Assembly (NCBI GenBank): GCA_040143965.1
Contig: JASJQH010006924.1
Coordinates: forward strand, 1-38,210
Direction: 5' to 3'
Origin: Basidiobolus ranarum
Lineage: Eukaryota
DNA: 38,210 nucleotides
In this document: piece after piece, positions 4,331 to 37,851 of the stretch
Position numbering within the stretch: position 1 is the stretch's first letter
Layout of the letters: each line of letters begins with the position of its first letter
Notes under the pieces: model-generated
The model's database searches: none
Seen by the model: only the letters and a program-made list of their open reading frames with translations
What the model was told of the DNA's origin: nothing
Made by a program: the position numbers and the translations under genes

Positions 4331-4738
4331 ATGAGCGGTTTGAGCCACCATCCACACGGATTTTCATAATTGAAATATTGATCAGATAAAAGCAGTATAT
4401 ATAAGAACACAAAGCCAATTATATTTGAGCCTCCATATCGTGAGTATCCATGATAGTGGTTAGGGTCAAGTGATCGCAAATTGATGGATCATTTAAATGG
4501 AATTCAGTACGTTGGAGCACTCTTCCAGTGAATTGTATTTCAATTAAATATTGTCTAGCAGGAATGTCTTATTTAGAATGAATATCTTTTCACTGGATAA
4601 TTTATTTGATTACCACAATGAAGCATGGCAAGTCGCTGCATTCAAATTTAGAGTTGAAATCAATTCCCTATATTGGTCATCGATGCTAGTGATAAAATTA
4701 TATCTAAACAAAGAATCGAAGCAGTACCATCCAGATAT

Positions 4739-4857
4739 TACTGTCCTAACCCTAAATCCTAATACTACTGTCCTAACCCTAAATCCTAATACTACTGTCC
4801 TAACCCTAAATCCTAATACTACTGTCCTAACCCTAAATCCCAATACTACTGTCCTAA
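4739..4857 (+). repeat. 27-bp minisatellite, about 4.4 copies, each containing CCTAACCCTAA
   Basis: Unit tactgtcctaaccctaaatcctaatac, nearly perfect. Confidence 0.95.
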
Positions 4858-8800: not shown

Positions 8801-8987
8801 CATAGTCAGATCAGGCTGTACATAGTCAGATCAGGATGTAGGTACCAACCTATGAAGTACTTACCTACCTCTAAGAAACCACACAAGTACGGTAATCAGA
8901 CTTCAATAATTATTTTGTATGCATGATATATTAGCCTTGGATTATTGCCATTGGTTATATAGTAGCCTTGGATTATTGCCATTGGTT
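8801..8987. repeat. Two short tandem duplications (20 bp x2 at 8801-8840; 31-bp period x2 at 8932-8987)
   Basis: catagtcagatcaggMtgta twice; tagccttggattattgccattggtt twice. Confidence 0.9.
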
Positions 8988-9291: not shown

Positions 9292-11099
9292 CTAGATAGC
9301 CTTACTGAACCCACTGTATTTAGTTGTCCTAAGAGTGGGATCGAATAGTTTGCATACATTTCTCAAGAAGATCGTCCCCAAACGATCAGTAAGTTCCACA
9401 ACTTCCCCTTCTAGTAAAAGAATGCCATCCCTGGTAACTGGAGCTCCGGATAGTACAACTATTCCTTCGCTTTGCATCTCCTTTAGCTCCACATAAAACT
9501 CATCGGGTAGTAACTGGGCCAACTCTGTGGTAAGCACAACCTTTGATTTACATGCAACGTCTAGAATAGCTTTTTTGATGATCAAATCTTCATTGGACAT
9601 TTCATGGCCCTTAATGAGAGGAAGCTCGCCCATGTCAACCTTCTTCGTATATTCCCTGATATTCTTTTCGTTTTGAGCGTAGCCATATTTGGCATCACTA
9701 ATAGCGGACATACCTAAACCAATAAGCAAGTGGGTTTGCTTGGCAACATAACCCATGAAGTTTCTGTGCAAAGTACCATTTTGCTTGCCAATAAAAAGCT
9801 GATCCGTAGGTAGAGCAAAATGATCCATTCCGACATCTCTATACCCCATTGAGGCGAACAACTTTTTACCGAGTTCATATAGGGAGCGTTTGTCAGTTTT
9901 AGAAGGCAAATGATGCTCAGTAAAGTTTCTTTGTTGTGGATTCACCCAGGGAACGTGAGCGTAACTGTAGTAAGCAATACGATCTGGACCTAGCTCACCC
10001 ACCATTGCGATGGTATTTTGGGTGGTTTCTAAAGTTTGATTTGGAAGGCCATAAATCAAATCTAAGGAGGGAATGAGTTAGAGTTCTCGATTAGAGTATT
10101 GAGACAATCCAATAATTACCAAAACAGATTGAAGTGTATCCAATTTTTCTAGCCAGATGCATAACTTGTTCGACAGTTTCGTATGTCTGTACTCTATTGA
10201 CAATCCGTTGCACATCAGGGTCAAAATCTTGAATCCCCAAACTGAGTTTTCTAAAGCCAAGATCATACAAGGTCTTTAAGTGCTCTTCACCAGTACTGTT
10301 TGGATGCGCCTCAAAACTAAACTCATGTGAGGGATGAAGATCACAGCCTTCCAACAATCCCTTGATCAATCGTTTCAAATTGCTTGGAGAGAAGAAGGTT
10401 GGTGTGCCTCCACCCAAGTAAATCTCACATATCTTAGGTTTTCCTGAGGTAGAGGTCAGATAGGATCGGTAGATCTCCCATTCTTTAAGTACAGCATCGA
10501 TATATGGATCCTCCACTTTATCATGGTATTTTGTGATGACTTTAGTACAAGCACAGTAATGGCACAACCTATTAACCGAGGAAGAGTGATTAGTATGATA
10601 TTTTGTCTATGGATTTTGTAACCCATCATACTTACTGCTCGCAGTATGGCAAATGAACATAGAGAGTCATGCCAAACTCATTGTTTGTCTCGTCAAAGCA
10701 TTTCTTTACTATGTTTAACCAACCCTCTTGTGTTGGTGGGACTTCAGTTTTATTCCAGAATGGTACCGGTGGATAACTTGTATATCTAGGAGCGGGAACA
10801 TCGTATTTACAGACAAGATCCTCAATATCTGCCAAACTATCCAGAACGGTATTCCTAAGCTCTTTTTCCTGCTCAAGTGATCTCACAGGTCTATGCTTTT
10901 TGATCTGTCTACTAGCGGTGGTATTCGTCGTTTTTTCACTTTTTTCCTCGACAGAGTCCTCAGCAGGCAATGGTTTTCCCGGGCTCTTCTCCGCCTTCGA
11001 GGCAAATAGACGTGGGATCAGAACTGAGAATAGTACTGTAGCGAGTAACAGGTATAGGGATAAGCTGAGCTTGGATGTTGTAGCAGCTTCTTCGCCCAT
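9292..11099 (-). CDS. hemN: Oxygen-independent coproporphyrinogen III oxidase (radical SAM HemN), 3 exons, 560 aa, with an N-terminal hydrophobic anchor
   Basis: Exons 11099-10636, 10568-10120 and 10061-9292 are joined by 67-bp and 58-bp GT-AG introns. Splicing restores LYVHLPYCEQLCHYCAC and SICFDLIYGLP. Other motifs: PRYTSYP, GGGTPT, SLGIQDFD, YAHVPW, GMDHFA, LHRNFMGY, C-terminal FSKAI. Confidence 0.93.
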
Positions 11100-12038
11100 G
11101 ATCGTTTGCAGAACTTTGGATTGAAAGTGAAAGAGTGTGGGGAGCTGGTTTTATTCACACCTCAGTATCTATTTAATTGATTTCCGATCGTAATAGGTAG
11201 AATTACTTTTACATTGAGATGTACCCGAAGGAATCACCAACTGCTGGAAATTCGAAATCTAGAGCCGAATATCAATTCCAGGCCATCAAAATTACTAAAT
11301 TCCCTCATACGACTTCACACAAGCCAATAAGTCATGGCCATAGTGTTGTCTCGACCTCAACTTAGTCATCTCTATACATGGCGCTAGTAATTCATCGGGG
11401 CTCCCATTTTCTCTCTTTTTCCCTAATTCAGGTATTTACTTCCGAATTCCTTGATTTAGAATTTACCTCCGATCCCAACTAGCCGGGGTTTTTTTACTAA
11501 AGTTAGGGTTGGGGTTAGGGTTATGCTCGTGTCGTTATACTTCTATATGGAAATTATTATTGATATGCATTCATGCATAAATAGTGAAGTAAGGCTAAGG
11601 TTAGAGTTAAAGCAGGAATAATTTAAGATTTATTTTTAAACGAATGTTATCCGATGTTTAGTGAGTATTTTTCAAGGATATATAAGCATCTTCGTACCGC
11701 CTATTACATTACATTTAAGCAGGTTTTTTCTGTTGATTCGAAATCCAACTTAGAAATCGATGTTCTTGGTATATTCTTTAAATGTATAGGTAACAGTAAT
11801 TGGCTTTAAGGATAAAATGACTTCATAAAAAAAGAAGATTCGAGTATTTGCATTTGTATCACCTGGAAGTAGATTAATTATGGCTCACAACAGAAGATAT
11901 AACAATAGAGTAAATACCAAGTAGGCTTTTCATTTATCATGTATTCCAACTCTTACGAACAATAAGCTTCTTTAACCTTTTCAAACTTTACGCAACGGAC
12001 CCTTCTTTCTAATAACTAAACAACCAGTCTACTTAAAC

Positions 12039-12644: not shown

Positions 12645-13517
12645 ATGACTATGGAGAATCAAACCACAGCCACCTCTAAATCGGAAATCACTATCCCAGT
12701 CGATGGTACGAATTCCATTTCAGAAAAGGTACATCAAGTAGCCGCAAAAGGTTTTGAGTTAGACACTGATGCGTATGAAAATGCACGACCAAGTTATCCT
12801 ACTGAGGCAATAGTACTTCTCCAAGAGAAGCTAAACCTGGTACCCGGGGAATCCTATGTTTTAGACTTGGCAGCAGGGACCGGGATATTTACTCGTCTAT
12901 TGCTTCCTTTTAAATATCACTTGACAGCAGTGGAACCAGCTGCTAATATGAGAGCTAAGTTCTCTCAAGTGCTCCCTGGTGTTCCTATACTAGATGGTAC
13001 AGCATGGAAAATACCCTTAGAAGACAATTCCCTTGATGTAGTTTTTGTTGCCCAAGCATTCCACTGGTTTAGTGATGTAGCTGCCATCAAGGAAATTTCC
13101 AGAGTATTAAAACCAGAAGGTCATTTGGCTTTAATATGGAATCTTGAAGACAGATCTCGAGCAAAGTGGGTTGGTCAAATCAGAGATATTTACGAAAAAC
13201 ATGAGAAAAGTTCACCACAATACCGCTTAGGTTTATGGAAGAAAGTATTTGAAACAGAGGAGTATCACCACTTATTTAACCCACTGAACGAGGTTCATTT
13301 ACAACGTGAAGTACTATCGGATAAACAAACCATATGGACTCGTGTATCTAGTAAAAGTTATGTAGCATCTTTGGATGCGGAAGAAAAAGAAACTTTGAAG
13401 AAACAAATATTGGAGACACTTGACAAGGCTCAAGATATTGAGGTGGATGAGGCAACTGGACATGTCAAATTCCCATATGTTACTGATATAATCTGGTGTC
13501 AAAAACGTACTCATTAA
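12645..13517 (+). CDS. Class I SAM-dependent methyltransferase (Methyltransf_11-like), intronless
   Basis: Motifs YENARPSYP, VLDLAAGTGIFT, AVEP, AQAFHWF, RVLKPEG. TATAAA at about 12586. Confidence 0.92.
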   Translation: MTMENQTTATSKSEITIPVDGTNSISEKVHQVAAKGFELDTDAYENARPSYPTEAIVLLQEKLNLVPGESYVLDLAAGTGIFTRLLLPFKYHLTAVEPAANMRAKFSQVLPGVPILDGTAWKIPLEDNSLDVVFVAQAFHWFSDVAAIKEISRVLKPEGHLALIWNLEDRSRAKWVGQIRDIYEKHEKSSPQYRLGLWKKVFETEEYHHLFNPLNEVHLQREVLSDKQTIWTRVSSKSYVASLDAEEKETLKKQILETLDKAQDIEVDEATGHVKFPYVTDIIWCQKRTH

Positions 13518-15968: not shown

Positions 15969-17198
15969 TTAAATGATTAAAGACTTGAACCAGCTATCCT
16001 CAAACACCTCATTGATGGTGATACGAGTATCTGGATTGGGATCCAGCATCTTGCGAATCAGTGGGAATGCGGCCCCGGGGATTCTTGTGAAAGATTTACC
16101 TTCCTTGCGGAACTCCAAATACATCGCAAAGTTCTTTTCGGTGTCTTTAGCCATATCCCATGGGAATTTTTTGAGAACCATACACAGATAAATGATGGCA
16201 GCTGACCAGATATCAGCCTTGGCTGCATCATAGGGTCGACCATCAAAGACCTCTGGTGCAATGTATGGATCGGAACCAGTGATTTCACATGCCTTAGCCC
16301 GATTTTCCTCACTCAAAGGGTCCAGGAAGATGAAGGCACATCCAAAATCAATAATTTTCAATGTTCCGTTCTCATCTACGCACAAGTTCTCCAATTTAAG
16401 ATCTCTGTGAGCCACACCACGGTGATGAAGGTAAGCGAGGCCACGCATCAATTGACCGAAGTAACTGTCAATTTCTTGTTGAGTCAATTGGTTCTCTTTG
16501 ATAACGGTGAACATATCTTGAGGACAGTATTGCATCACTTCGTGGATTTGGTTATCCTCCATGATGACATCGAGGGTTTGAATAACGTTCTCATGGACTA
16601 GAGAAGCGGAGATGTAGACTTCGTTACTGATCCATTCGTAATAGCGATGTTCGTCTTCTTCAGGTTTCTTAGTACGGAAGCTTTTAACGGCATACTTTCT
16701 ACCGGTGCGTGGGCAGTAAGTTTGTCTTACACCACCACCAGCACCACTACAGATATCGTTAGTGAAGCCACCATAGAGCTGATTGAGTGATGGAGCATCT
16801 CTTTTTCTTAATGCATCCAATAATGGCATGTAGTCCTTGGAGGCAGATTTGGCGTTGGATTCATGTTGGGACTTCAAATGTTTCTTACGTAAGTTCAAGA
16901 AACCGAAACGCTTATGATTTGTGGATTTACGTTCCTTCTTATTATCTCTAAATACAAATCTACTTGGAACCTTGTAGAGCGAGGACATTCCAGCTGTGAA
17001 GCAATCATCAGACGAACTACTTATCGTCACACCTGATTCAAGCTTGGTAGTGCTGTCGTTGAATCCAGTGGAGTATTGACTGGATAGACTCTCTTGTGAA
17101 TGGTAGGGAATGTGAATTCCTTTGTTTGGAGCTTGATGGTATAGATGTAAATGAGGGATCATTTGGTAAGTAGTCACTGGAGCTTTGGTAACCGCCAT
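15969..17198 (-). CDS. Ser/Thr protein kinase, HAL/NPR (Hal4/Sat4/Hrk1)-like, intronless. Likely start 17198; the ORF is open to 17279
   Basis: Motifs YAVK, HRDLKLENL, DFG, GSDPYIAPE, KADIWS, FPW. Start chosen by length comparison with the paralogue. Confidence 0.93.
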   Translation of the reverse strand: MAVTKAPVTTYQMIPHLHLYHQAPNKGIHIPYHSQESLSSQYSTGFNDSTTKLESGVTISSSSDDCFTAGMSSLYKVPSRFVFRDNKKERKSTNHKRFGFLNLRKKHLKSQHESNAKSASKDYMPLLDALRKRDAPSLNQLYGGFTNDICSGAGGGVRQTYCPRTGRKYAVKSFRTKKPEEDEHRYYEWISNEVYISASLVHENVIQTLDVIMEDNQIHEVMQYCPQDMFTVIKENQLTQQEIDSYFGQLMRGLAYLHHRGVAHRDLKLENLCVDENGTLKIIDFGCAFIFLDPLSEENRAKACEITGSDPYIAPEVFDGRPYDAAKADIWSAAIIYLCMVLKKFPWDMAKDTEKNFAMYLEFRKEGKSFTRIPGAAFPLIRKMLDPNPDTRITINEVFEDSWFKSLII

Positions 17199-18015
17199 TT
17201 TGATTAGTTCTTTAGGGATAGGAACGTAAAGATACTTTTGAAGGAGTGACATTTGCTCAGTATTTATAATACTGCACATCGCTTAGTAACCCGATAGTAT
17301 CAACCAATCAAAATCATTCAATCTTAGTTTATCACCAAACTCGGATCGGATGAGTTATTCGGCACGGGATGGAACTATTGATATGGTTAGATCCGCCTCA
17401 TGTCTGTAATAACCTCGCCGCTAGTTGTGATTGGATTTAGGTGATGAATTGAAGCACCTTCGTTATACTCATGCTCGCGTAACTGAAGTGATTAGTCAAC
17501 TTCCAAGCACTTTTACCTTTTGATTAGGTTCGTCAACGATGAATGATGGCATGCATATCACGTTGTTTGATGATTGGGAATATAATATGAAAGATGGGTC
17601 AAGTGAATTTTACCGAAAACCCAGTCACATCTGAAGTGTTGCACGAGATTTCCAAAATGATGTGATGCTCGTTCCATCTGCTCCGGGATTGAGATTGTTT
17701 GCTTAATCTATTTTTAGCTGTTTATGATATGATAATAAAGTGGCAAGATTTGTTGATAAAATGTGCTAATAAAAGCGTCTATAGATGTGCCGATAAAGGA
17801 GTTAACAACATGTGCTAATAAAGAGTGGATTACTGAAGGTATCTTTGTCACAACACTTGCACCCAACACTCAGCAGTTACGCCCTAGCATATAGAAAGAT
17901 GAGAAAGTGAGTACTGTTCAAAACCCCCTCTTGGGGTTTCTTCTTCTTACCAATAAAGGCTATTACAGTCTCGTGAATATGGTTGTGTATCAAGTCATTG
18001 TGAGTCCATATTAGT

Positions 18016-21975: not shown

Positions 21976-23229
21976 TTATACAATCAGTGATTTGAACCAA
22001 CTGTCTTCGAAAACCTCATTAATTGTAATACGAGTGTCGGGATTGGGGTCCAACATCTTACGAATTAAGGGGAACGATTTTTTGGGAATATGGACAAAGA
22101 AATCTTCATTGTCTCTATATTGCAAGTACAATGAATAGTTGCTCTCGGATGGCTTGGCTACATCCCAAGGGAACTTCTTCAACACCATGCAGAGATAGAC
22201 GATAGCAGCGGACCAGATATCAGCCTTAGCTGCATCATACAATTCCCCACTGAAGATTTCTGGTGCAATGTATGGGTCAGAGCCGGTAAGCTCACATGCC
22301 TTGGCATGACCCTCTTCGTTAACTGGGTCCAGGAAGATGAAGGCACATCCGAAATCAACTATCTTTAAGTTACCCTTCTCGTCAACGCAAAGATTCTCAA
22401 GCTTGAGGTCGCGATGAGCTACACCACGATAATGTAAGTAGGCAATGCCGCGCATCATTTGGACAAAGTATTGATTGATTTCTTGCATTGTTGCTTGGTC
22501 ATTTTTGATGACATTGAATAGATCTTGTGGACAGTATTCCATTACTGTATGGATTTGTTCGTTCTCCATAACCACATCAACCGTTTGGATTACATTTTCA
22601 TGGACAAGTGATGCAGCGATGTACACTTCATTACTGATCCATTCGTAATAGCGCTTCTCGTTCTCCCCTCTTCTCATTTTACGGAAACTCTTGACGGCAT
22701 ACTTCTTGCCAGTTTGAGGGCAAGTGGTTTTTCTTACTCCTCCCATGGGACCACAGAAGATAGAATCGGTGTATTCACCGTATAATTGATTTAGAGATGG
22801 GGCAACCCGTTTTCTTAACGCCTCCAACAATGGAGTATACTGTTGAACTGCTTGTTTTGGTAGAGATTTTTCCACTGGTTTGGTGGACTTGAAACTGGAA
22901 AAGAAGTTGAAATGTTTGGATGTAGAGGATTTACGATCTTTCTTGGTGTCTCTAAAAATGAATCTGCTAGGAACTTTGCACAGGGAAGACATACTAATGG
23001 TGAAATGATCATTGAGGTCAGTGGATGTGCTGGGATCCGAAGAAGCTATGCTGGAGTATCCAGATTTGATAGAGCAGTTATCAAATTTGGCGGAGCAGTG
23101 AGAAAAGAGACTTTCTTGAGAATGATAAGGAATATGTATCCCTTTGTTTGGAGAGTTTACACTCATGTGGTGAATGTTATCGACCCCACGATGATTGTAG
23201 GGGATCATTATAGGCTTAGTGGTAGACAT
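21976..23229 (-). CDS. Ser/Thr protein kinase, HAL/NPR-like, paralogue of 15969-17198
   Basis: Same catalytic motifs, shared N-terminal NKGIHIPYHSQESL, near-identical C-terminus. Confidence 0.94.
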   Translation of the reverse strand: MSTTKPIMIPYNHRGVDNIHHMSVNSPNKGIHIPYHSQESLFSHCSAKFDNCSIKSGYSSIASSDPSTSTDLNDHFTISMSSLCKVPSRFIFRDTKKDRKSSTSKHFNFFSSFKSTKPVEKSLPKQAVQQYTPLLEALRKRVAPSLNQLYGEYTDSIFCGPMGGVRKTTCPQTGKKYAVKSFRKMRRGENEKRYYEWISNEVYIAASLVHENVIQTVDVVMENEQIHTVMEYCPQDLFNVIKNDQATMQEINQYFVQMMRGIAYLHYRGVAHRDLKLENLCVDEKGNLKIVDFGCAFIFLDPVNEEGHAKACELTGSDPYIAPEIFSGELYDAAKADIWSAAIVYLCMVLKKFPWDVAKPSESNYSLYLQYRDNEDFFVHIPKKSFPLIRKMLDPNPDTRITINEVFEDSWFKSLIV

Positions 23230-24257
23230 TAGAATGTGAAGTTATTACTAGAACGCACTAGTATTTAAGTTATATGGTACACGATGCAGATTGAAAGCCT
23301 GCCACTCCGCTTATATAGAAAATCACTCAGGAAATCGCCCGGGAAATCATATCACCCACTATCTTCATCATCAATGTGAAATCCAATCGTATAATCCAAT
23401 CACGGAATATGCACACAATTGCCACCGCATAGCAAGGATTGATAGCAAGGTATATATATATATATACATTAATATTATTAGATTAAGCATTTATTGACTG
23501 CATTGAGTGAAACTGACATCATCCCTTTAAACTACCAAACTGCTAGAGGGATTACAACTTTGTCAAATCATGTATCTACTTTGCAGCTAACAGGTGAATT
23601 CAGTCCACACTGTCGCCCTTCGCAGATGGAATAATAGGATAGATTGGCATTCATTATTAGATAGAGACAATGTGTCAATCCACTAGAAGCAGGTAAAGAA
23701 TCCGATCGTCATTTGCTTTATGGTTCATTCACTACGCTGAGATCAATATGATGATAAGATCTGAAGTTAGGGTTGGTCTAAATTGGCATGCCAATAGCCA
23801 ATATTGGAAATAGAACGGAACCAACATTAACATTAGGAGCCACATTAAAACTGATTGAAAAACAAACAATATTTGCCTGGGTATTTTCATTCCCGATCTT
23901 ACTAATGGATCCGAGTTTCATGATGTAACTCGCCAAATATATCCAGCTTATCATAAATCACGATAAATAATCGACATCGCCGAAATAATGGTTATTATAT
24001 TATATAAGATTGTCATATGTTGGCTTAACATATTTTCCATACGAAAATGGTTTAACATTCACCCGTGCGGGAAACTGTATTTCCAAGTCACTAAAACTTG
24101 CCCCAAATATATTCAGTTAATCATGGGAGCTACGGGACTAAATACTACTACTTAATTTCCTTTTATGGTGTGCCAACCTACCCTTCTGTTTATCAAGAGG
24201 GTTTCTGGTTAAGGTGACTTAACCTCCATATCGTAGAGACCTCTGATAGGCAATTGA

Positions 24258-25087: not shown

Positions 25088-27643
25088 CTATGGTTTATTC
25101 TTTATGGAAATTAGCGATAGGCCGATTCTCTTTCGATTAATATCTATATTTTCTACACACACCTGGCATACCTGACCAGTTTGCAGTGTTTGATTACTCA
25201 TCTTAGAGATGTGGACCAATCCATTATCATGGATTCCTATATCAACAAACGCTCCAAATTGAGTGATGTTACTTACGGTTCCTTCCAGCTTCATCCCGAC
25301 TTTCAAGTCCCGGATATCTTGCACATCAGGGTCTAACTCCGCTACAACAAATGCTGACCGAGGATCTCTTCCGGGTTTTTCCAACTCGGCGATTATATCT
25401 TGGATGGTTATTACGCCGAAACCAGACTCAGGGTCAGTAAATTCCTTTGGATCAAGGCTACATAATGACCCCGGTCTAATCTTCTTGGTATCCTTAATTC
25501 CAAGTTTTTGAAGGATTTTACGTGCGATATGATATGACTCAGGGTGAATACCTGTACCATCTAACGGATCAACCTGCCCTTTTTTATCACTAATTGCGGT
25601 GGTCGGGATGCGCAAGAAACCTGCACACTGCTGAAATGTCTTTTTACCTAAACGAGGGACTTCGAGGAGTTGCCTTCGGTTTGTAAATGATCCATGTGTA
25701 TCTCGGTATTTTACTATCTCAGTTGCTGCTTTTTCTCCTAATCCAGAAACGTAGGTTAAAAGTTGCGCTGAAGCAGTGTTCAGCTGAACGCCAACTAGAT
25801 TAACACAATCCTCTACGGTACTTTCTAATGATTTCCCAAGTTTTGAAGGGTTGATGTCGTGTTGATATTGTCCAACCCCGAGTGACTTAGGATCTATTTT
25901 CACCAATTCCGCTAAAGGGTCTTGAAGTCGCCTAGCAATTGAGATAGCTCCTCTAATGGTCACATCCAGGTTAGGGAATTCTTTTATTGCCAGTGCCGAG
26001 GCCGAATATACGGAGGCCCCAGCTTCAGAGACAATAACTTTAGTTGGTTTGGCGATGTTTGTTTTGGCCTTACTTTGTCGTTCTTTGAAAGAGTCAAGAA
26101 GCTCTTGCACTAGCTTTGAGGTTTCTCTTGTGGCAGTTCCATTACCGATGGCTATTAGCCCTACCTTGTGCTTGATGCATAGATCCCAAAGGGCTTCTTG
26201 AGCCTCAGCCCATCGGCGTTGGGGTTGATGTGGATAGATAACAGTATGATCTAATAGTGCACCAGTGTCATCGATAACGGCTACCTTGACGCCTGTTCGA
26301 AATCCAGGATCGAGACCAATGCTTGGCTTTCGACCGGCGGGTGGTGATAACAAAATATCTCGGAGATTCGATGCAAAGATCTGGATTGCTTTGTCTTCAG
26401 CTTGCATCTTCAATTCTTTCATGATCTCTGCCTCAATCCTCTTGGCCATTTTGGTTGTCCATGCTTGCTTCACTATATCTTTCATAAAATGTTGATCGAA
26501 ATGGATTTCAAAATGACGAGCGATAAGTCTTAGATATTCTTCTGCATTTTTAATGGCAACCATGTCGTCACTATGCTTTTGCACGTTCGCCTCTTCCCTT
26601 TTCCTCTTTGTTGTGGTGTTTGGTGGTGATTTTGTTCTGATGGCTACTTGACATGTTAGAAAGCCCTCATTTTGACCACGTAAAATGGCCATTAACTGAT
26701 GGGATGCGATTCTACGAATACTTTCTTCTCGGTAGAAATAATCTCGATAGATGTCAGCGCCACGTTTACCTTCGATGTTCTTTTCCACGGTTTTAGAGGT
26801 TTTCCCCTTCTCATTTAATTTGGGTTTTTTACTGCTTTCACTTTTTGAAATCCCTTTTTTCGGTGTTACCATCAGATAACCGTATTTATTGATATTTTCT
26901 CTGATTTCTTGGGTCAAGTTAGGATCATCGGTGATCATATCCATTATAAGGGCTATAGTGCCCTCAAGAGCGAGTTGCTCGTCCTTCCTATATTCTAAAG
27001 CCTCGGGGGTGATATTTGAATCAAAACGGGTATTTTTTAAGAAATCTCTAGTAGCTGCCAATGCAATAGACCTCTTTTTTGGATGACTAGTGAAAAAATT
27101 CTTCGCCAAAGGTTGGAATCCAGCCTCCAAAGCCAATTTAGCTTTTGTGCCTTTTCTTTTAGGTTTAAAGGGTAGATAAATATCTTCCAAGTCGATCTTT
27201 TTGTAGGTAGTATTGATAAGTTTGGTTAAGGTTTCGTTTAAACAACCTTCTTTTTTTAAAGTTTTCAAGATAACTTGCTTTCTAGCTTCCAAGTCCAACA
27301 TATATTCTAAACGTTCTTCTAAACTTCGTAGTTTTATATCGGTCATATTTCCCGTTAACTCTTTACGGTATCTAGCGATAAAAGGAACAGTCATTTCTTC
27401 TCGTTTTAAAAGTCTTTGAACTGTATGGATTTGACTTGAAGTGACTTCGAATTCTTTTGCCAGAAAGTCTATTGTGTTTGTTGGAAGAGAAGTGATATTA
27501 TTGGTACTTTTTGTTAACCCAGAGTCGGATTCTGAATCGGAATCCACAAGTGCGTTCTTTGAAGTCATTATCGGGGGTATTATTCTAGAGTAAGGTCTTA
27601 GTCCAAGTATGTAAAGAGAAGGGGTGAATATCTTAGTTAGCAT
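25088..27643 (-). CDS. tex: Tex/YhgF family RNA-binding transcription accessory protein (Tex_N, YqgF, HhH and S1 domains), intronless
   Basis: Motifs TVPFIARYRKELTG, LEDIYLPFKPKR, GLDPGFRTGVK, IAIGNGTATRET, VSEAGASVYSAS, RRLQDPLAELVKIDPKSLGVGQYQHD, KPGRDPR, FGAFVDIG. Alternative start at 27568. Confidence 0.95.
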   Translation of the reverse strand: MLTKIFTPSLYILGLRPYSRIIPPIMTSKNALVDSDSESDSGLTKSTNNITSLPTNTIDFLAKEFEVTSSQIHTVQRLLKREEMTVPFIARYRKELTGNMTDIKLRSLEERLEYMLDLEARKQVILKTLKKEGCLNETLTKLINTTYKKIDLEDIYLPFKPKRKGTKAKLALEAGFQPLAKNFFTSHPKKRSIALAATRDFLKNTRFDSNITPEALEYRKDEQLALEGTIALIMDMITDDPNLTQEIRENINKYGYLMVTPKKGISKSESSKKPKLNEKGKTSKTVEKNIEGKRGADIYRDYFYREESIRRIASHQLMAILRGQNEGFLTCQVAIRTKSPPNTTTKRKREEANVQKHSDDMVAIKNAEEYLRLIARHFEIHFDQHFMKDIVKQAWTTKMAKRIEAEIMKELKMQAEDKAIQIFASNLRDILLSPPAGRKPSIGLDPGFRTGVKVAVIDDTGALLDHTVIYPHQPQRRWAEAQEALWDLCIKHKVGLIAIGNGTATRETSKLVQELLDSFKERQSKAKTNIAKPTKVIVSEAGASVYSASALAIKEFPNLDVTIRGAISIARRLQDPLAELVKIDPKSLGVGQYQHDINPSKLGKSLESTVEDCVNLVGVQLNTASAQLLTYVSGLGEKAATEIVKYRDTHGSFTNRRQLLEVPRLGKKTFQQCAGFLRIPTTAISDKKGQVDPLDGTGIHPESYHIARKILQKLGIKDTKKIRPGSLCSLDPKEFTDPESGFGVITIQDIIAELEKPGRDPRSAFVVAELDPDVQDIRDLKVGMKLEGTVSNITQFGAFVDIGIHDNGLVHISKMSNQTLQTGQVCQVCVENIDINRKRIGLSLISIKNKP

Positions 27644-30747: not shown

Positions 30748-31074
30748 TTCACGTAAATAAATAAAATGCGATCTTTTCATCTGACCAATGAATGTTTCCC
30801 ATTGCTGTATCCTAATAGAGGAATCTGGGGTGGCTTAGTGACGGGTCATAATGACCTAAGAGTTATCGGTAATTTAAAGGTGAAACCAGTAATAGTTTAT
30901 GAGTTATTTGAAACTCTATTGTATCTGGAATTTGAAACGCAAATCCTTCAATCATTGTCTACTAAAGAACTTTCTCCCCTCAAGTTTTCCAATTGAATGA
31001 TAACTTCATTGAATTGATTTCTCCCCCTCCTCATGCACTGGTGAATTCTTCCAACTAACCCTAATTTCCTTTGT

Positions 31075-31665
31075 ATGGTCCAAAATTCAACATTTAACAA
31101 GTTGGGCTTATATCCTAAGGCTTGGGCAGCCAAGTACAGGACATCCCTACGCGACACATCAGATACTAACTTAAACCCCATTAATCATCTCCTAACTAGC
31201 CATTTAACCCACTCCACTAATCACCAGTCTTCTCACACTAATCAAGAGAAATCAGTTCTGATTACGCCTAAGATACATTGTGAGATTGACAGGCTTCCCA
31301 ACGAGATTCTGTGGGAAATATTCCACCATGTAGATGGTTCGGAGTTGTTAAAACTTGAATTGGTATGCAAGAGATGGAAATTCTTGGGAGAATCGGAGAT
31401 TCTATGGTATAGGAAGTGTACACATGAGTTCCCATTCCTCTGTTTACCAGTTGGATGTCATCCGGTGATATTAGACTTGAGGGAGGAGAATCAAGAAAGC
31501 ATTCCATCTTCTTCCATTGTGACTTACGTCAATCCTGAAAGTGATGGTCACATGTATAAACGACATTTTTCCATTCCATTTTTACCTTCTTCCCCTACAA
31601 TAAAGATCAACGGACATTGGAGTTACCGTAGCATTTATTGGGAACTAAATAGAATATGGTATTGA
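31075..31665 (+). CDS. F-box protein (196 aa)
   Basis: IDRLPNEILWEIFHHVDGSELLKLELVCKRWKFL...LWYRKC. Confidence 0.85.
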   Translation: MVQNSTFNKLGLYPKAWAAKYRTSLRDTSDTNLNPINHLLTSHLTHSTNHQSSHTNQEKSVLITPKIHCEIDRLPNEILWEIFHHVDGSELLKLELVCKRWKFLGESEILWYRKCTHEFPFLCLPVGCHPVILDLREENQESIPSSSIVTYVNPESDGHMYKRHFSIPFLPSSPTIKINGHWSYRSIYWELNRIWY

Positions 31666-35841: not shown

Positions 35842-36786
35842 CTATGCCAAAGCTTCAAATTGTCTGAACCGCTTGTTCAGAGTTAGGCATAGTTCTAGGA
35901 AGACCTTTCTTTGACGCAAATGTTGAAAGACCTTCATGTTCCGGATCAAAGTGCATCCTTTTACCTCCAATACAGATAGATGAACACATTGTGATATCCG
36001 TGTTAGTGAGTGGTCGGTGATCATTGAGCAATTGTTCAAAGAAACGCGTTCTAGTGCACCTCTTCGTTGTTCAATCAATGTTATTAGTCCCAGATCAGAG
36101 ATATTGCAACCACTTGCACCAATGGTCAGAATGTTGGTATTCTGAGCGATTTCTATGAACGATGTATCAGTTATCCGCTCTGCTTCACTGGTGCGACCGA
36201 TGTTTAAAAAACTCAGTTTACGACAGCTTCTCGCGATAGCAGTAATCCCATGATCGGTCACTTTTGAACAAGCACGAAGATCAAGATGCTCTAAGTTTGG
36301 ACAATATGTCGCTAATAAAAGTAAAATATTATCATCCACTTGAACGCAACCAGGAAACTTAACCTGACTTAAATTAGGGTTTAACTTAATTAAAGTATGA
36401 ATGATTTCTAACTCAAGGTTATGACAAATAAAGAACTCTATACTTTCAAGACGAGTAAAGAATTTTTCAATAGGTAAGTGGAGTAGGGGAGTGGTGGTTT
36501 TTAATTGAGATAAACGAAAACTACGCGTGTATTTTGAAAAGGCATTGGTAGTCACTTCCGAAGTGGTCGGTAAACTTTGTATGAAACTTTCCAACTTGGT
36601 TTCGTTAGAGAAAGTCAGATTCATCCATAGAATTCTAGAAGCTATCTGGTTCCAGAATCTACTCACTGAAAGGCACGGATGGAGAGAATTCTCAGTGGCA
36701 AGAAACTTGAACACCACCGTCAGTAAATCCGGAAGTTCCAAAGCTTGTGACGAACACTCAGTGGCAAGTGTGGATGCTAGAGCCAT
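35842..36786 (-). CDS. F-box/LRR (cysteine-containing LRR, AMN1/FBXL-like) protein
   Basis: F-box LPDLLTVVFKFL..CLSVSRFW and LRRs such as CPNLEHLDLRACSKVTDHGI. First ATG at 36786. Confidence 0.9.
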   Translation of the reverse strand: MALASTLATECSSQALELPDLLTVVFKFLATENSLHPCLSVSRFWNQIASRILWMNLTFSNETKLESFIQSLPTTSEVTTNAFSKYTRSFRLSQLKTTTPLLHLPIEKFFTRLESIEFFICHNLELEIIHTLIKLNPNLSQVKFPGCVQVDDNILLLLATYCPNLEHLDLRACSKVTDHGITAIARSCRKLSFLNIGRTSEAERITDTSFIEIAQNTNILTIGASGCNISDLGLITLIEQRRGALERVSLNNCSMITDHSLTRISQCVHLSVLEVKGCTLIRNMKVFQHLRQRKVFLELCLTLNKRFRQFEALA

Positions 36787-37851
36787 TGGAAATAAGGTAG
36801 AATTCAATGAAAATAATAACAATCAAATAGTGCTCGGCGTGACTGTTGACAAGAAGGTAACTGCTCAGAGCCTCTATGGTTAATGGGCTATATATATGCA
36901 TCGTCGATCCGTAAAAATCAATGACACAAAGACGAAACGGTGAATGGGGTGAATCGAAACATTGTCCGTACAAGTCATCAAACCAAATGGATCCTAAGTG
37001 GCTCATATATGTTGCTATCCTCGTTACTAGTTAAAATGAGCGTTTTGGTCTGCAACATCAGCGTTAATCTGTTATGGTTATTTATTGTTATGATGATTGC
37101 TTTATGACAGGCCAATACGTTAGCGGTCTCGAAGCATTCAGGTTAGCACCGGTTAGTGCCAATCCAAGGCTTTTAATGTCAAAATTTCTCCTTTCCTGTA
37201 GGCATCTTGCATTGGAGACAATGGTTGGTGAAAAGCGATGGCCATAAGTCTGTTTATAGAAAGACACAAGTCAATTATAAATTGCCCATTTTTAGCTCGT
37301 TTGATGGCCGAGTGTCTAGAACATGAGCTAATATTGTATTCATATTCATCAAACCTGCTGGTATCAGTTGTAGAGTTAAAAGGGTGTGCAAATATCATGC
37401 CTGAAGTCAAAAAGATGTGCAAATTCCCAGCATATCCTGCTTAACACCGACCATTTTAATATCAAGTTCACAGCTCTTTCATCCCTTTTCGTGCCTGTTT
37501 CTCTCACTAAATTCACAGGGGTTCTACTATTTGCCACGTTTCATTAACTTAGCTAGGTACATTTCAGCTCTGCATTCATTTCGCACAGGGTTTCATTTCG
37601 AGGTCTAGGGTTAGGGTTGCCTGTACCTATTTGCACTCATTCGCCACTATCTGCGCCCTAGATACTTAGGGTTATACGTATATTTCTATCATTTTCTGAG
37701 GTGACGCTGAACAGAGGTGACGCAAGGTTATCCAGATATTGTAATTACTGAGCTGCCTATTTCCACTTGGATGGTCAAATTGTTACTTAAATCATATTTA
37801 CACCACAGAATCAAAGCTATTGCCACTCAGATACATGCCCATTCAAGATAT

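Follow-up and report, generated by a model that had tools for sequence, protein, structure and literature searches.

Oxygen-independent coproporphyrinogen dehydrogenase (CgdH, the product of hemN) removes the carboxyl groups of two propionate side chains from coproporphyrinogen III in a reaction that needs no O2 (PMC10114771) and is described in a 2026 review as unique to Gram-negative prokaryotes. HemN-like proteins are usual in eukaryotes as well, fungi and animals included, where a review treats them as RSAD1 chaperones (PMC10114718). Here we describe a gene of the true HemN type in the fungus Basidiobolus ranarum. It occupies positions 9292-11099 on the minus strand of the analysed part of contig JASJQH010006924.1, a stretch of 38,210 nucleotides called the window below. 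We think it probable that this is a bona fide HemN/CgdH-type gene of bacterial origin, the donor being most likely a member of Bacteroidota near Marinifilaceae, which was acquired by a Basidiobolus ancestor before the split between B. ranarum and Basidiobolus meristosporus and is now an ordinary nuclear gene. What was observed directly is how the gene is built, which family it belongs to as judged by sequence and fold, that its affinity is bacterial, that it is flanked by a fungal gene and that it is conserved in the second species.

Among described systems, E. coli HemN (structure 1OLT) shares with the B. ranarum protein the CX3CX2CXC, GGGTPT, PRYTSYP and RNFxGY regions, membership in the same curated-model family and the predicted fold. 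The two share only about 32% identity when aligned by fold and differ in the methionine of the fungal RNFMGY, which stands in place of Q311 in the E. coli RNFQGY; the fungal side also has two introns, small insertions and, at the N-terminus, 93 additional residues that include a hydrophobic helix. In the usual teaching, heme synthesis in eukaryotes depends on oxygen for the conversion of coproporphyrinogen, a step catalysed by the HemF-type enzyme Hem13/CPOX. The fold and chemistry of the latter are unrelated to those of HemN, and its oxidant is O2; at this same pathway step Basidiobolus HemN would bypass or supplement it.

HemW/RSAD1 belongs to the same HemN-like superfamily and has the same radical S-adenosylmethionine (SAM) core. 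HemW is described as truncated at the N-terminus relative to HemN and devoid of the fourth cysteine of CX3CX2CXC (PMC11442138), whereas the Basidiobolus protein has the full N-terminal region and the fourth cysteine and scores below the HemW cut-off. According to the review cited above, many annotated HemN proteins have other functions (PMC10114718), and in the relevant part of PMC4870792 the eukaryotic "HemN" entries of earlier surveys were not set apart from HemW.

Basidiobolus is a symbiont of the amphibian and reptile gut, and candidates for horizontal gene transfer (HGT) make up 2-5% of its genes (PMC7466969). The bacterium-to-Basidiobolus transfers reported by Tabima et al. (2020) in that paper resemble the present case in the recipient genus, in Bacteroidetes being a frequent donor and in the gut as the proposed arena of transfer. 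Its main text is centred on secondary-metabolite genes and makes no mention of heme, HemN or radical SAM, so far as this text goes; the gene may stand in the supplementary HGT tables. Neither heme nor HemN occurs in the main texts of two HGT surveys, this one included, and our literature search found no paper discussing Basidiobolus HemN or linking Basidiobolus with coproporphyrinogen or heme biosynthesis. The B. meristosporus protein already carries the HemN label in public records. The enzyme as such is known; what is unexpected is its host, and its anchor is in the eukaryotic style. With its introns and its conservation in B. ranarum and B. meristosporus, this intact true HemN clearly departs from both review statements with which we began.

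Structure of the hemN gene

The hemN gene is composed of three exons separated by two short introns. Its parts are listed below in the order of transcription; TIGR00538 is the NCBI equivalog model of HemN.

9292-11099, minus strand: hemN gene; ATG at 11099-11097, stop codon TAG at 9294-9292, three exons, two introns
10636-11099, minus strand: exon 1, coding for residues 1-154 plus 2 nt of codon 155; contains the N-terminal extension, the PRYTSYP region and C153 (the first Cys of the Fe-S motif); matches TIGR00538 positions 6-60
11001-11069, minus strand: hydrophobic helix, approximately residues 11-33, within the N-terminal extension (residues 1-93, positions 10821-11099)
10569-10635, minus strand: intron 1, 67 nt, GTAAGT...TAG, phase 2, GC 0.33; located within CX3C of the Fe-S motif, where it interrupts the Q155 codon that lies between those of C153 and C157; branch-point-like site ACTAAT close to the 3' end (minus strand)
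10120-10568, minus strand: exon 2; C157, C160, C162, GGGTPT and the radical-SAM core (PF04055, E 5.8e-15); matches TIGR00538 positions 61-206
10062-10119, minus strand: intron 2, 58 nt, GTAATT...TAG, phase 1, directly ahead of DLIYGLP; branch-point-like site CTCTAAC
9292-10061, minus strand: exon 3 including the stop codon; DLIYGLP, YAHVPW, GMDHFA and RNFMGY; matches TIGR00538 positions 206-454 with 215.9 bits; its C-terminal domain has a 14-residue fungal insertion at alignment columns of about 523-536

The intron lengths, 67 and 58 nt, are not divisible by three, and 35 stops appear when the gene is read unspliced. Since the translations of the three exons match TIGR00538 at contiguous positions (6-60, 61-206 and 206-454), the splice junctions are exact. 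The spliced product has 560 amino acids (561 codons with the stop) and coincides letter for letter with the database entry "hypothetical protein K7432_001954 [Basidiobolus ranarum]".

The first-pass annotation of this DNA had listed a set of HemN motifs and two spliceosomal introns, one of them splitting the Fe-S motif. Every motif of that set is present in the B. ranarum protein: PRYTSYP at residues 104-110, SYPPVPFW at 108-115, C153-x3-C157-x2-C160-x-C162, YAHVPW at 338-343, GMDHFA at 382-387 and RNFMGY at 404-409. The introns are of the GT-AG type, and the first one does fall into the Q155 codon between C153 and C157.

Membership in the HemN family

Against TIGR00538 the B. ranarum protein scored 406.8 bits (E = 1.2e-121) with a cut-off of 324.95; on the same model a Pontibacter HemN scored 415.3 and the B. 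meristosporus protein 388.2. Scores with the sister models were all below the respective cut-offs, given here in brackets: 153.8 (205.4) for HemW, TIGR00539, 133.3 (321.4) for HemZ and 154.2 (400) for ChuW/HutW. The best sequence match among solved structures was 1OLT (E 4.5e-82), which covers residues 95-557. Within this alignment, residues 95-143 correspond to residues 12-52 of 1OLT, so the N-terminal PRYTSYP segment, which is absent from HemW, is present in the fungal protein. The four cysteines of CX3CX2CXC (C153, C157, C160 and C162) align with C62, C66, C69 and C71 of E. coli HemN.

The AlphaFold2 (AF2) model of the B. ranarum protein has a predicted local distance difference test score (pLDDT) of 73.5 and a predicted template modelling score (pTM) of 0.71. 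When compared with known structures by Foldseek, the model showed the HemN fold, consisting of a partial TIM barrel and a C-terminal domain: its top match was again 1OLT (E 3.6e-30, template modelling score 0.79 on the target), followed at a distance by a match with E 1.6e-08.

A tree of 111 rows, rooted with four HemW paralogs, nested the pair of fungal proteins within the HemN clade; a branch of length 2.55 with a support of 100 separates HemW from this clade. The HNxxYW motif was not found in the B. ranarum protein, and the protein has none of the four distinguishing features of HemW/RSAD1 (N-terminal truncation, missing fourth cysteine, HNxxYW and a TIGR00539 score above the cut-off). It was claimed initially that the protein is of the true HemN type rather than HemW/RSAD1, and this is borne out: only the HemN model was passed, and the HemW-rooted tree puts the gene into the HemN clade.

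Residue conservation

Conservation was evaluated with an alignment of 105 bacterial HemN sequences, comprising 80 Bacteroidota-type and 25 proteobacterial rows. Of its 91 columns at least 95% identical, 85 are kept in both fungal proteins, compared to 82-91 in the bacterial rows. The P104-P110 segment, invariant across the 105 bacterial sequences, is kept in the fungal proteins too, and so is GGGTPT (G207-T212).

A hand count along the 1OLT alignment relates E. coli Y56, H58, C62, C66, C69 and C71 to B. ranarum Y147, H149, C153, C157, C160 and C162, while G111-113, E145, R184, F310 and I329 correspond to G207-209, E241, R280, F406 and I425. M407 takes the place of E. coli Q311, and at least 90% of the 80 rows of the Bacteroidota type likewise have methionine here. 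We take E. coli Y56, H58, E145, R184, F310, Q311 and I329 to be the residues contacting the two SAM molecules in 1OLT.

Bacterial affinity of hemN

The protein search returned 6130 significant matches, the best 120 of which were examined. Two of them are Basidiobolus proteins, the only rows with eukaryotic names among these 120, and all 24 other rows named by organism are bacterial. They belong to Pontibacter, Rufibacter, Adhaeribacter, Labilibaculum, Marinifilum, Marinifilaceae, Fulvivirga and Rhodocytophaga, all of them Bacteroidota. The 80 best genome loci, judged by their record titles, are distributed among Bacteroidota (71), Campylobacterota (5), Balneolota (2), Verrucomicrobiota (1) and Pseudomonadota (1). 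When 1.84 billion representatives were searched exhaustively with HMMER, 25363 matches resulted, the best being 53% identical; none of the best 150 of these covers the N-terminal extension.

The careful tree (66 rows, LG+C20 PMSF) joins the Basidiobolus pair to 10 Marinifilaceae-type rows with a support of 99/97. One level further out, a set of 29 rows is supported at 96/94, and the split of the mostly Bacteroidota clade from proteobacterial HemN at 100/100. The fungi plus Marinifilaceae-type grouping was recovered with a support of 98 in the quick 111-row tree and 99/98 in a 32-row tree. Eighteen alignment columns tell Bacteroidota-type HemN from the proteobacterial one. In 15 of them the fungal proteins have the Bacteroidota-type residue, in one the proteobacterial residue and in two neither; M407 of RNFMGY and W115 of PFW are among the Bacteroidota-type signature residues. 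The fungi and the Marinifilaceae type also have in common the local motif PYCE-LC-YCACTKVIT and RIAYYSYAHVPW. The suspicion, originally raised by the look of two motifs, that the gene is Bacteroidetes-like was thus well placed, given the 24 named matches from Bacteroidota, the 15 of 18 signature columns and the tree position beside Marinifilaceae.

The nearest relatives are HemN proteins of Marinifilaceae (Labilibaculum, Ancylomarina and Marinifilum), which are 50-58% identical to the fungal protein, are its sister group in the trees and share the 15 signature residues. The Marinifilaceae locus belongs to a GTDB family represented here by 97 genomes. Matches at E <= 1e-60 were obtained in 38 of these, 35 of which have the close type (50-58% identity) and three a distant one (33-35%). 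As identities within this family reach only 50-58%, the fungi are to be regarded as sister to the sampled family and not as nested within it. Bacteroidota HemN proteins have 451-488 amino acids and, unlike the fungal pair, neither a membrane anchor nor introns; the fungal pair for its part stands out by the long stem and by the six changes at near-invariant positions that are discussed below.

Several further observations concern the distribution of HemN. Matches to the fungal HemN at E <= 1e-60 are lacking from 59 of the 97 genomes of the candidate family, mostly the smaller ones, so HemN is patchy there. Long fused forms of HemN (655-809 amino acids) occur among the representatives matched by HMMER. 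Sulfurovum/Campylobacterota carry a Bacteroidota-type HemN in a five-row clade beside Flavobacteriaceae (support 100), and single Akkermansia, Ectothiorhodospiraceae and Balneolaceae bins carry it as well. Either Bacteroidota-type HemN moved between bacterial phyla or some of these bins are mixed.

N-terminal extension and predicted membrane anchor

Both fungal proteins have about 93 additional N-terminal residues, and most of this stretch is not aligned by any bacterial sequence. The maximum of Kyte-Doolittle hydrophobicity over 19 residues is 2.21 in B. ranarum, at residues 11-29, and 1.89 in B. meristosporus. The hydrophobic helix has 13 of 24 positions identical between the two species; acidic residues precede it and R30, K35 and K38 follow. 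The AF2 model has a helix at residues 3-36 and then a linker of low confidence at residues 35-73 (pLDDT about 31-51), which is poorly conserved (7 of 38 positions identical between the species). The helix ahead of the HemN core is conserved, with 19 of 27 positions identical. Small insertions are also seen in the alignment of fungal HemN, besides the 14-residue one in the C-terminal domain.

As there is no ATG between M1 and M144 and the conserved region starts at about residue 95, the extension must be translated and the anchor cannot be skipped. The arrangement of charges and hydrophobic residues suggests, more speculatively, a signal anchor in the membrane of the endoplasmic reticulum (ER) or the outer membrane of mitochondria, which would leave the catalytic domain on the cytosolic side.

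Fungal setting and the second Basidiobolus species

The gene adjoining hemN in the upstream direction is transcribed divergently from it.

12645-13517, plus strand: class-I SAM methyltransferase (Methyltransf_11), intronless, 1.5 kb upstream of hemN

Its relatives in the protein search come from Mucoromycota, chytrids, bryophytes and other eukaryotes, at 40-58% identity. To judge by these relatives, the methyltransferase is of ordinary eukaryotic/fungal ancestry and anchors hemN in fungal DNA. The base composition of hemN (GC 0.423, third-position GC3 0.411) is like that of the host genes, whose GC3 ranges from 0.365 to 0.484.

The B. meristosporus ortholog has 565 residues and is 85% identical to the B. 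ranarum protein in the core and 44% in the extension. By comparison, the methyltransferase is 75% and a Tex-like gene of the same contig 73% identical between the two species, and the higher conservation of the HemN core speaks, indirectly, for selection. B. ranarum and B. meristosporus fall into two major clades of the genus according to a preprint (10.1101/2025.03.31.646025); as hemN is present in both species, it is older than the split of these clades. In B. meristosporus, the longest contig reported is 54785 bases for each of the orthologs of hemN, the methyltransferase and the Tex-like gene. This shared contig size suggests that the synteny of the three genes is conserved in that species.

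In the B. meristosporus assembly the gene is present as two identical copies, since one and the same 565-residue HemN sequence has two accessions, each on a contig of its own.

Since the introns interrupt the reading frame, a bacterial gene is ruled out. The first-pass annotation had held the gene to be genuinely nuclear and not a contamination, and it was right in this respect: two GT-AG introns, a methyltransferase neighbour of fungal ancestry and the kinase and F-box genes on the contig all agree on this point.

Possible role and alternative explanations

We propose the following course of events. An ancestor of Basidiobolus would have acquired hemN from a bacterium before B. ranarum and B. 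meristosporus diverged. After the transfer, the gene would have gained two spliceosomal introns, a host-like base composition and some 93 N-terminal residues with one hydrophobic helix. By homology, C153, C157 and C160 are expected to hold a [4Fe-4S] cluster, and two SAM molecules may be bound via GGGTPT, E241, R280, F406 and I425, as suggested by the mapping to 1OLT and the roles we assume for the residues there. If the analogy to CgdH holds, the enzyme would decarboxylate two propionates of coproporphyrinogen III without O2. In a fungus living in the amphibian or reptile gut, HemN would then relieve the O2-requiring Hem13 step; the first-pass annotation, too, had put forward heme synthesis in hypoxic niches as no more than an inference. 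The enzyme could be attached to the ER or to the outer membrane of mitochondria, its catalytic domain facing the cytosol, and pass protoporphyrinogen to the mitochondrion. We put forward tentatively, at slightly less than an even chance, that Basidiobolus would be the first demonstrated case of a fungus performing the coproporphyrinogen step without oxygen, by means of a membrane-anchored, intron-bearing, Bacteroidota-like CgdH kept across the genus.

If this is true, Basidiobolus would be a eukaryotic exception to the confinement of CgdH to Gram-negative prokaryotes and would provide a concrete adaptation to the hypoxic vertebrate gut. It would also be a testable case of a respiring fungus possibly keeping up heme synthesis in a low-oxygen gut. 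The gene also illustrates how a bacterial Fe-S enzyme becomes adapted to a eukaryotic cell, namely by gaining introns, taking on a composition like that of the host and acquiring a membrane anchor.

A number of points weigh against this account, and part of them concern the donor. In the approximately unbiased (AU) test (32 rows, LG+G4) the placement of the fungi outside all 26 Bacteroidota-type rows was not rejected (delta lnL 18.4, p 0.137), and for this reason the donor assignment rests on bootstrap support and the signature columns. The fungal stem is long, with 0.91 changes per column in the careful tree. The best identity found in the 97 genomes of the candidate donor family is 58%, and a search for a closer donor within these genomes gave nothing above this value. 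The named HemN-bearing genera are marine sediment bacteria, and a gut-resident donor is not supported by them. Codon usage was tried as a discriminator between host and donor and rejected (r 0.66 for hemN against host genes, 0.62-0.75 for host genes against Marinifilaceae hemN); it cannot tell the two apart because Marinifilaceae are likewise AT-rich. The donor could then have been a bacterium other than a Marinifilaceae-like member of Bacteroidota, namely an unsampled lineage at the base of the Bacteroidota-type HemN clade or outside it. The AU result and the ceiling of 58% identity are in its favour, as is the nesting of Sulfurovum, Akkermansia, Balneolaceae and Ectothiorhodospiraceae rows within the type, which points to movement of Bacteroidota-type HemN between phyla. 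However, three trees agree on the Marinifilaceae-type grouping (99/97 with the mixture model, 98 with 111 rows, 99/98 with 32 rows), 15 of 18 signature columns are Bacteroidota-type, and the local motif and the second segment given with it above are common to the fungi and the Marinifilaceae type. With these in hand, we regard such a donor as quite unlikely.

The other points against our account concern function. Six near-invariant positions are changed in both Basidiobolus species (T111P, S145T/A, H205Y, R262K, A396G and L459M); H205 and R262 are identical in 105 of 105 bacterial rows, and H205 lies two residues ahead of GGGTPT. Because of these six changes and the long fungal stem, altered or reduced activity is possible. 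Basidiobolus grows in air; HemN, for its part, is an oxygen-labile enzyme that requires a reductant. Besides, if there is no O2-independent protoporphyrinogen oxidase (HemG/HemJ), fully anaerobic heme synthesis would be blocked one step later. The transferred HemN may have changed or lost its original activity and serve in heme binding or trafficking, or in some other radical-SAM chemistry at a membrane, instead of working as a coproporphyrinogen dehydrogenase. The membrane anchor and the 14-residue C-terminal insertion, both new in the fungal proteins, would fit such a change as well, and annotated HemN proteins often have other functions (PMC10114718). On the other hand, the equivalog score is above the cut-off and near that of a genuine Bacteroidota HemN (406.8 versus 415.3), the 85 of 91 invariant positions kept are within the bacterial span, the fourth cysteine and the N-terminal region that HemW lacks (PMC11442138) are both there, and the HemN core has diverged less between the two species than the neighbour genes have. 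A change or loss of activity therefore seems unlikely to us, though it deserves more weight than the other alternatives. Two of these have next to nothing left to recommend them. A HemW/RSAD1-type heme chaperone mislabelled as HemN would be natural in a fungus, RSAD1 being the general HemN-like protein of eukaryotes (PMC10114718), but it is already contradicted by the model cut-offs (TIGR00539 at 153.8, below 205.4, while the hemN model passes), by the PRYTSYP region and fourth cysteine together with the absence of HNxxYW, and by the long, fully supported branch between HemW and the HemN clade with the fungal pair. Bacterial contamination or a chimeric assembly could be suspected as the close homologs are all bacterial; this has hardly any probability either, being contradicted by the two GT-AG introns, which break the frame so that a bacterium could not express the gene, and by the flanking genes (the methyltransferase of fungal ancestry 1.5 kb away, the kinase and F-box genes on the same contig). 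The host-like GC and GC3 and the 85% identical ortholog in an independently sequenced species, on a 54785-base contig like the orthologs of the two neighbour genes, also speak against it. We therefore retain the view that Basidiobolus probably carries a bona fide HemN/CgdH-type gene of bacterial origin.

Other features of the window

The remaining annotated genes are more distant from hemN.

15969-17282, minus strand: Ser/Thr protein-kinase open reading frame (ORF), Pkinase E 7.7e-54
21976-23241, minus strand: Ser/Thr protein-kinase ORF, Pkinase E 3e-52, similar to the preceding one
31045-31665, plus strand: F-box ORF
35842-36822, minus strand: F-box ORF

The two kinase ORFs and the two F-box ORFs are probably local paralog pairs. 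An HSP20 ORF is also located on the hemN contig. tRNA genes were not found in the window.

Several repeats surround hemN. A 27-bp tandem repeat of 4.6 copies with a CCCTAA-like stretch is located at 4735-4857, and a short TTAGGG-like run is found at 11503-11522, 400 bp upstream of hemN. Downstream of the gene there are two small two-copy tandem duplications of 20 and 31 bp (8801-8840 and 8926-8987).

The Tex-like gene mentioned above (25088-27643, minus strand) is intronless and codes for a Tex-family protein of 851 amino acids with Tex_N, YqgF-like, HHH and S1 domains and about 60 extra N-terminal residues. Apart from the 73% identical B. meristosporus ortholog, the organism names in the other 118 listed matches are all bacterial (Actinomycetota and Pseudomonadota), with 42-46% identity. 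Judged by these listed matches, the gene may represent a second bacterial acquisition, 14 kb from hemN.

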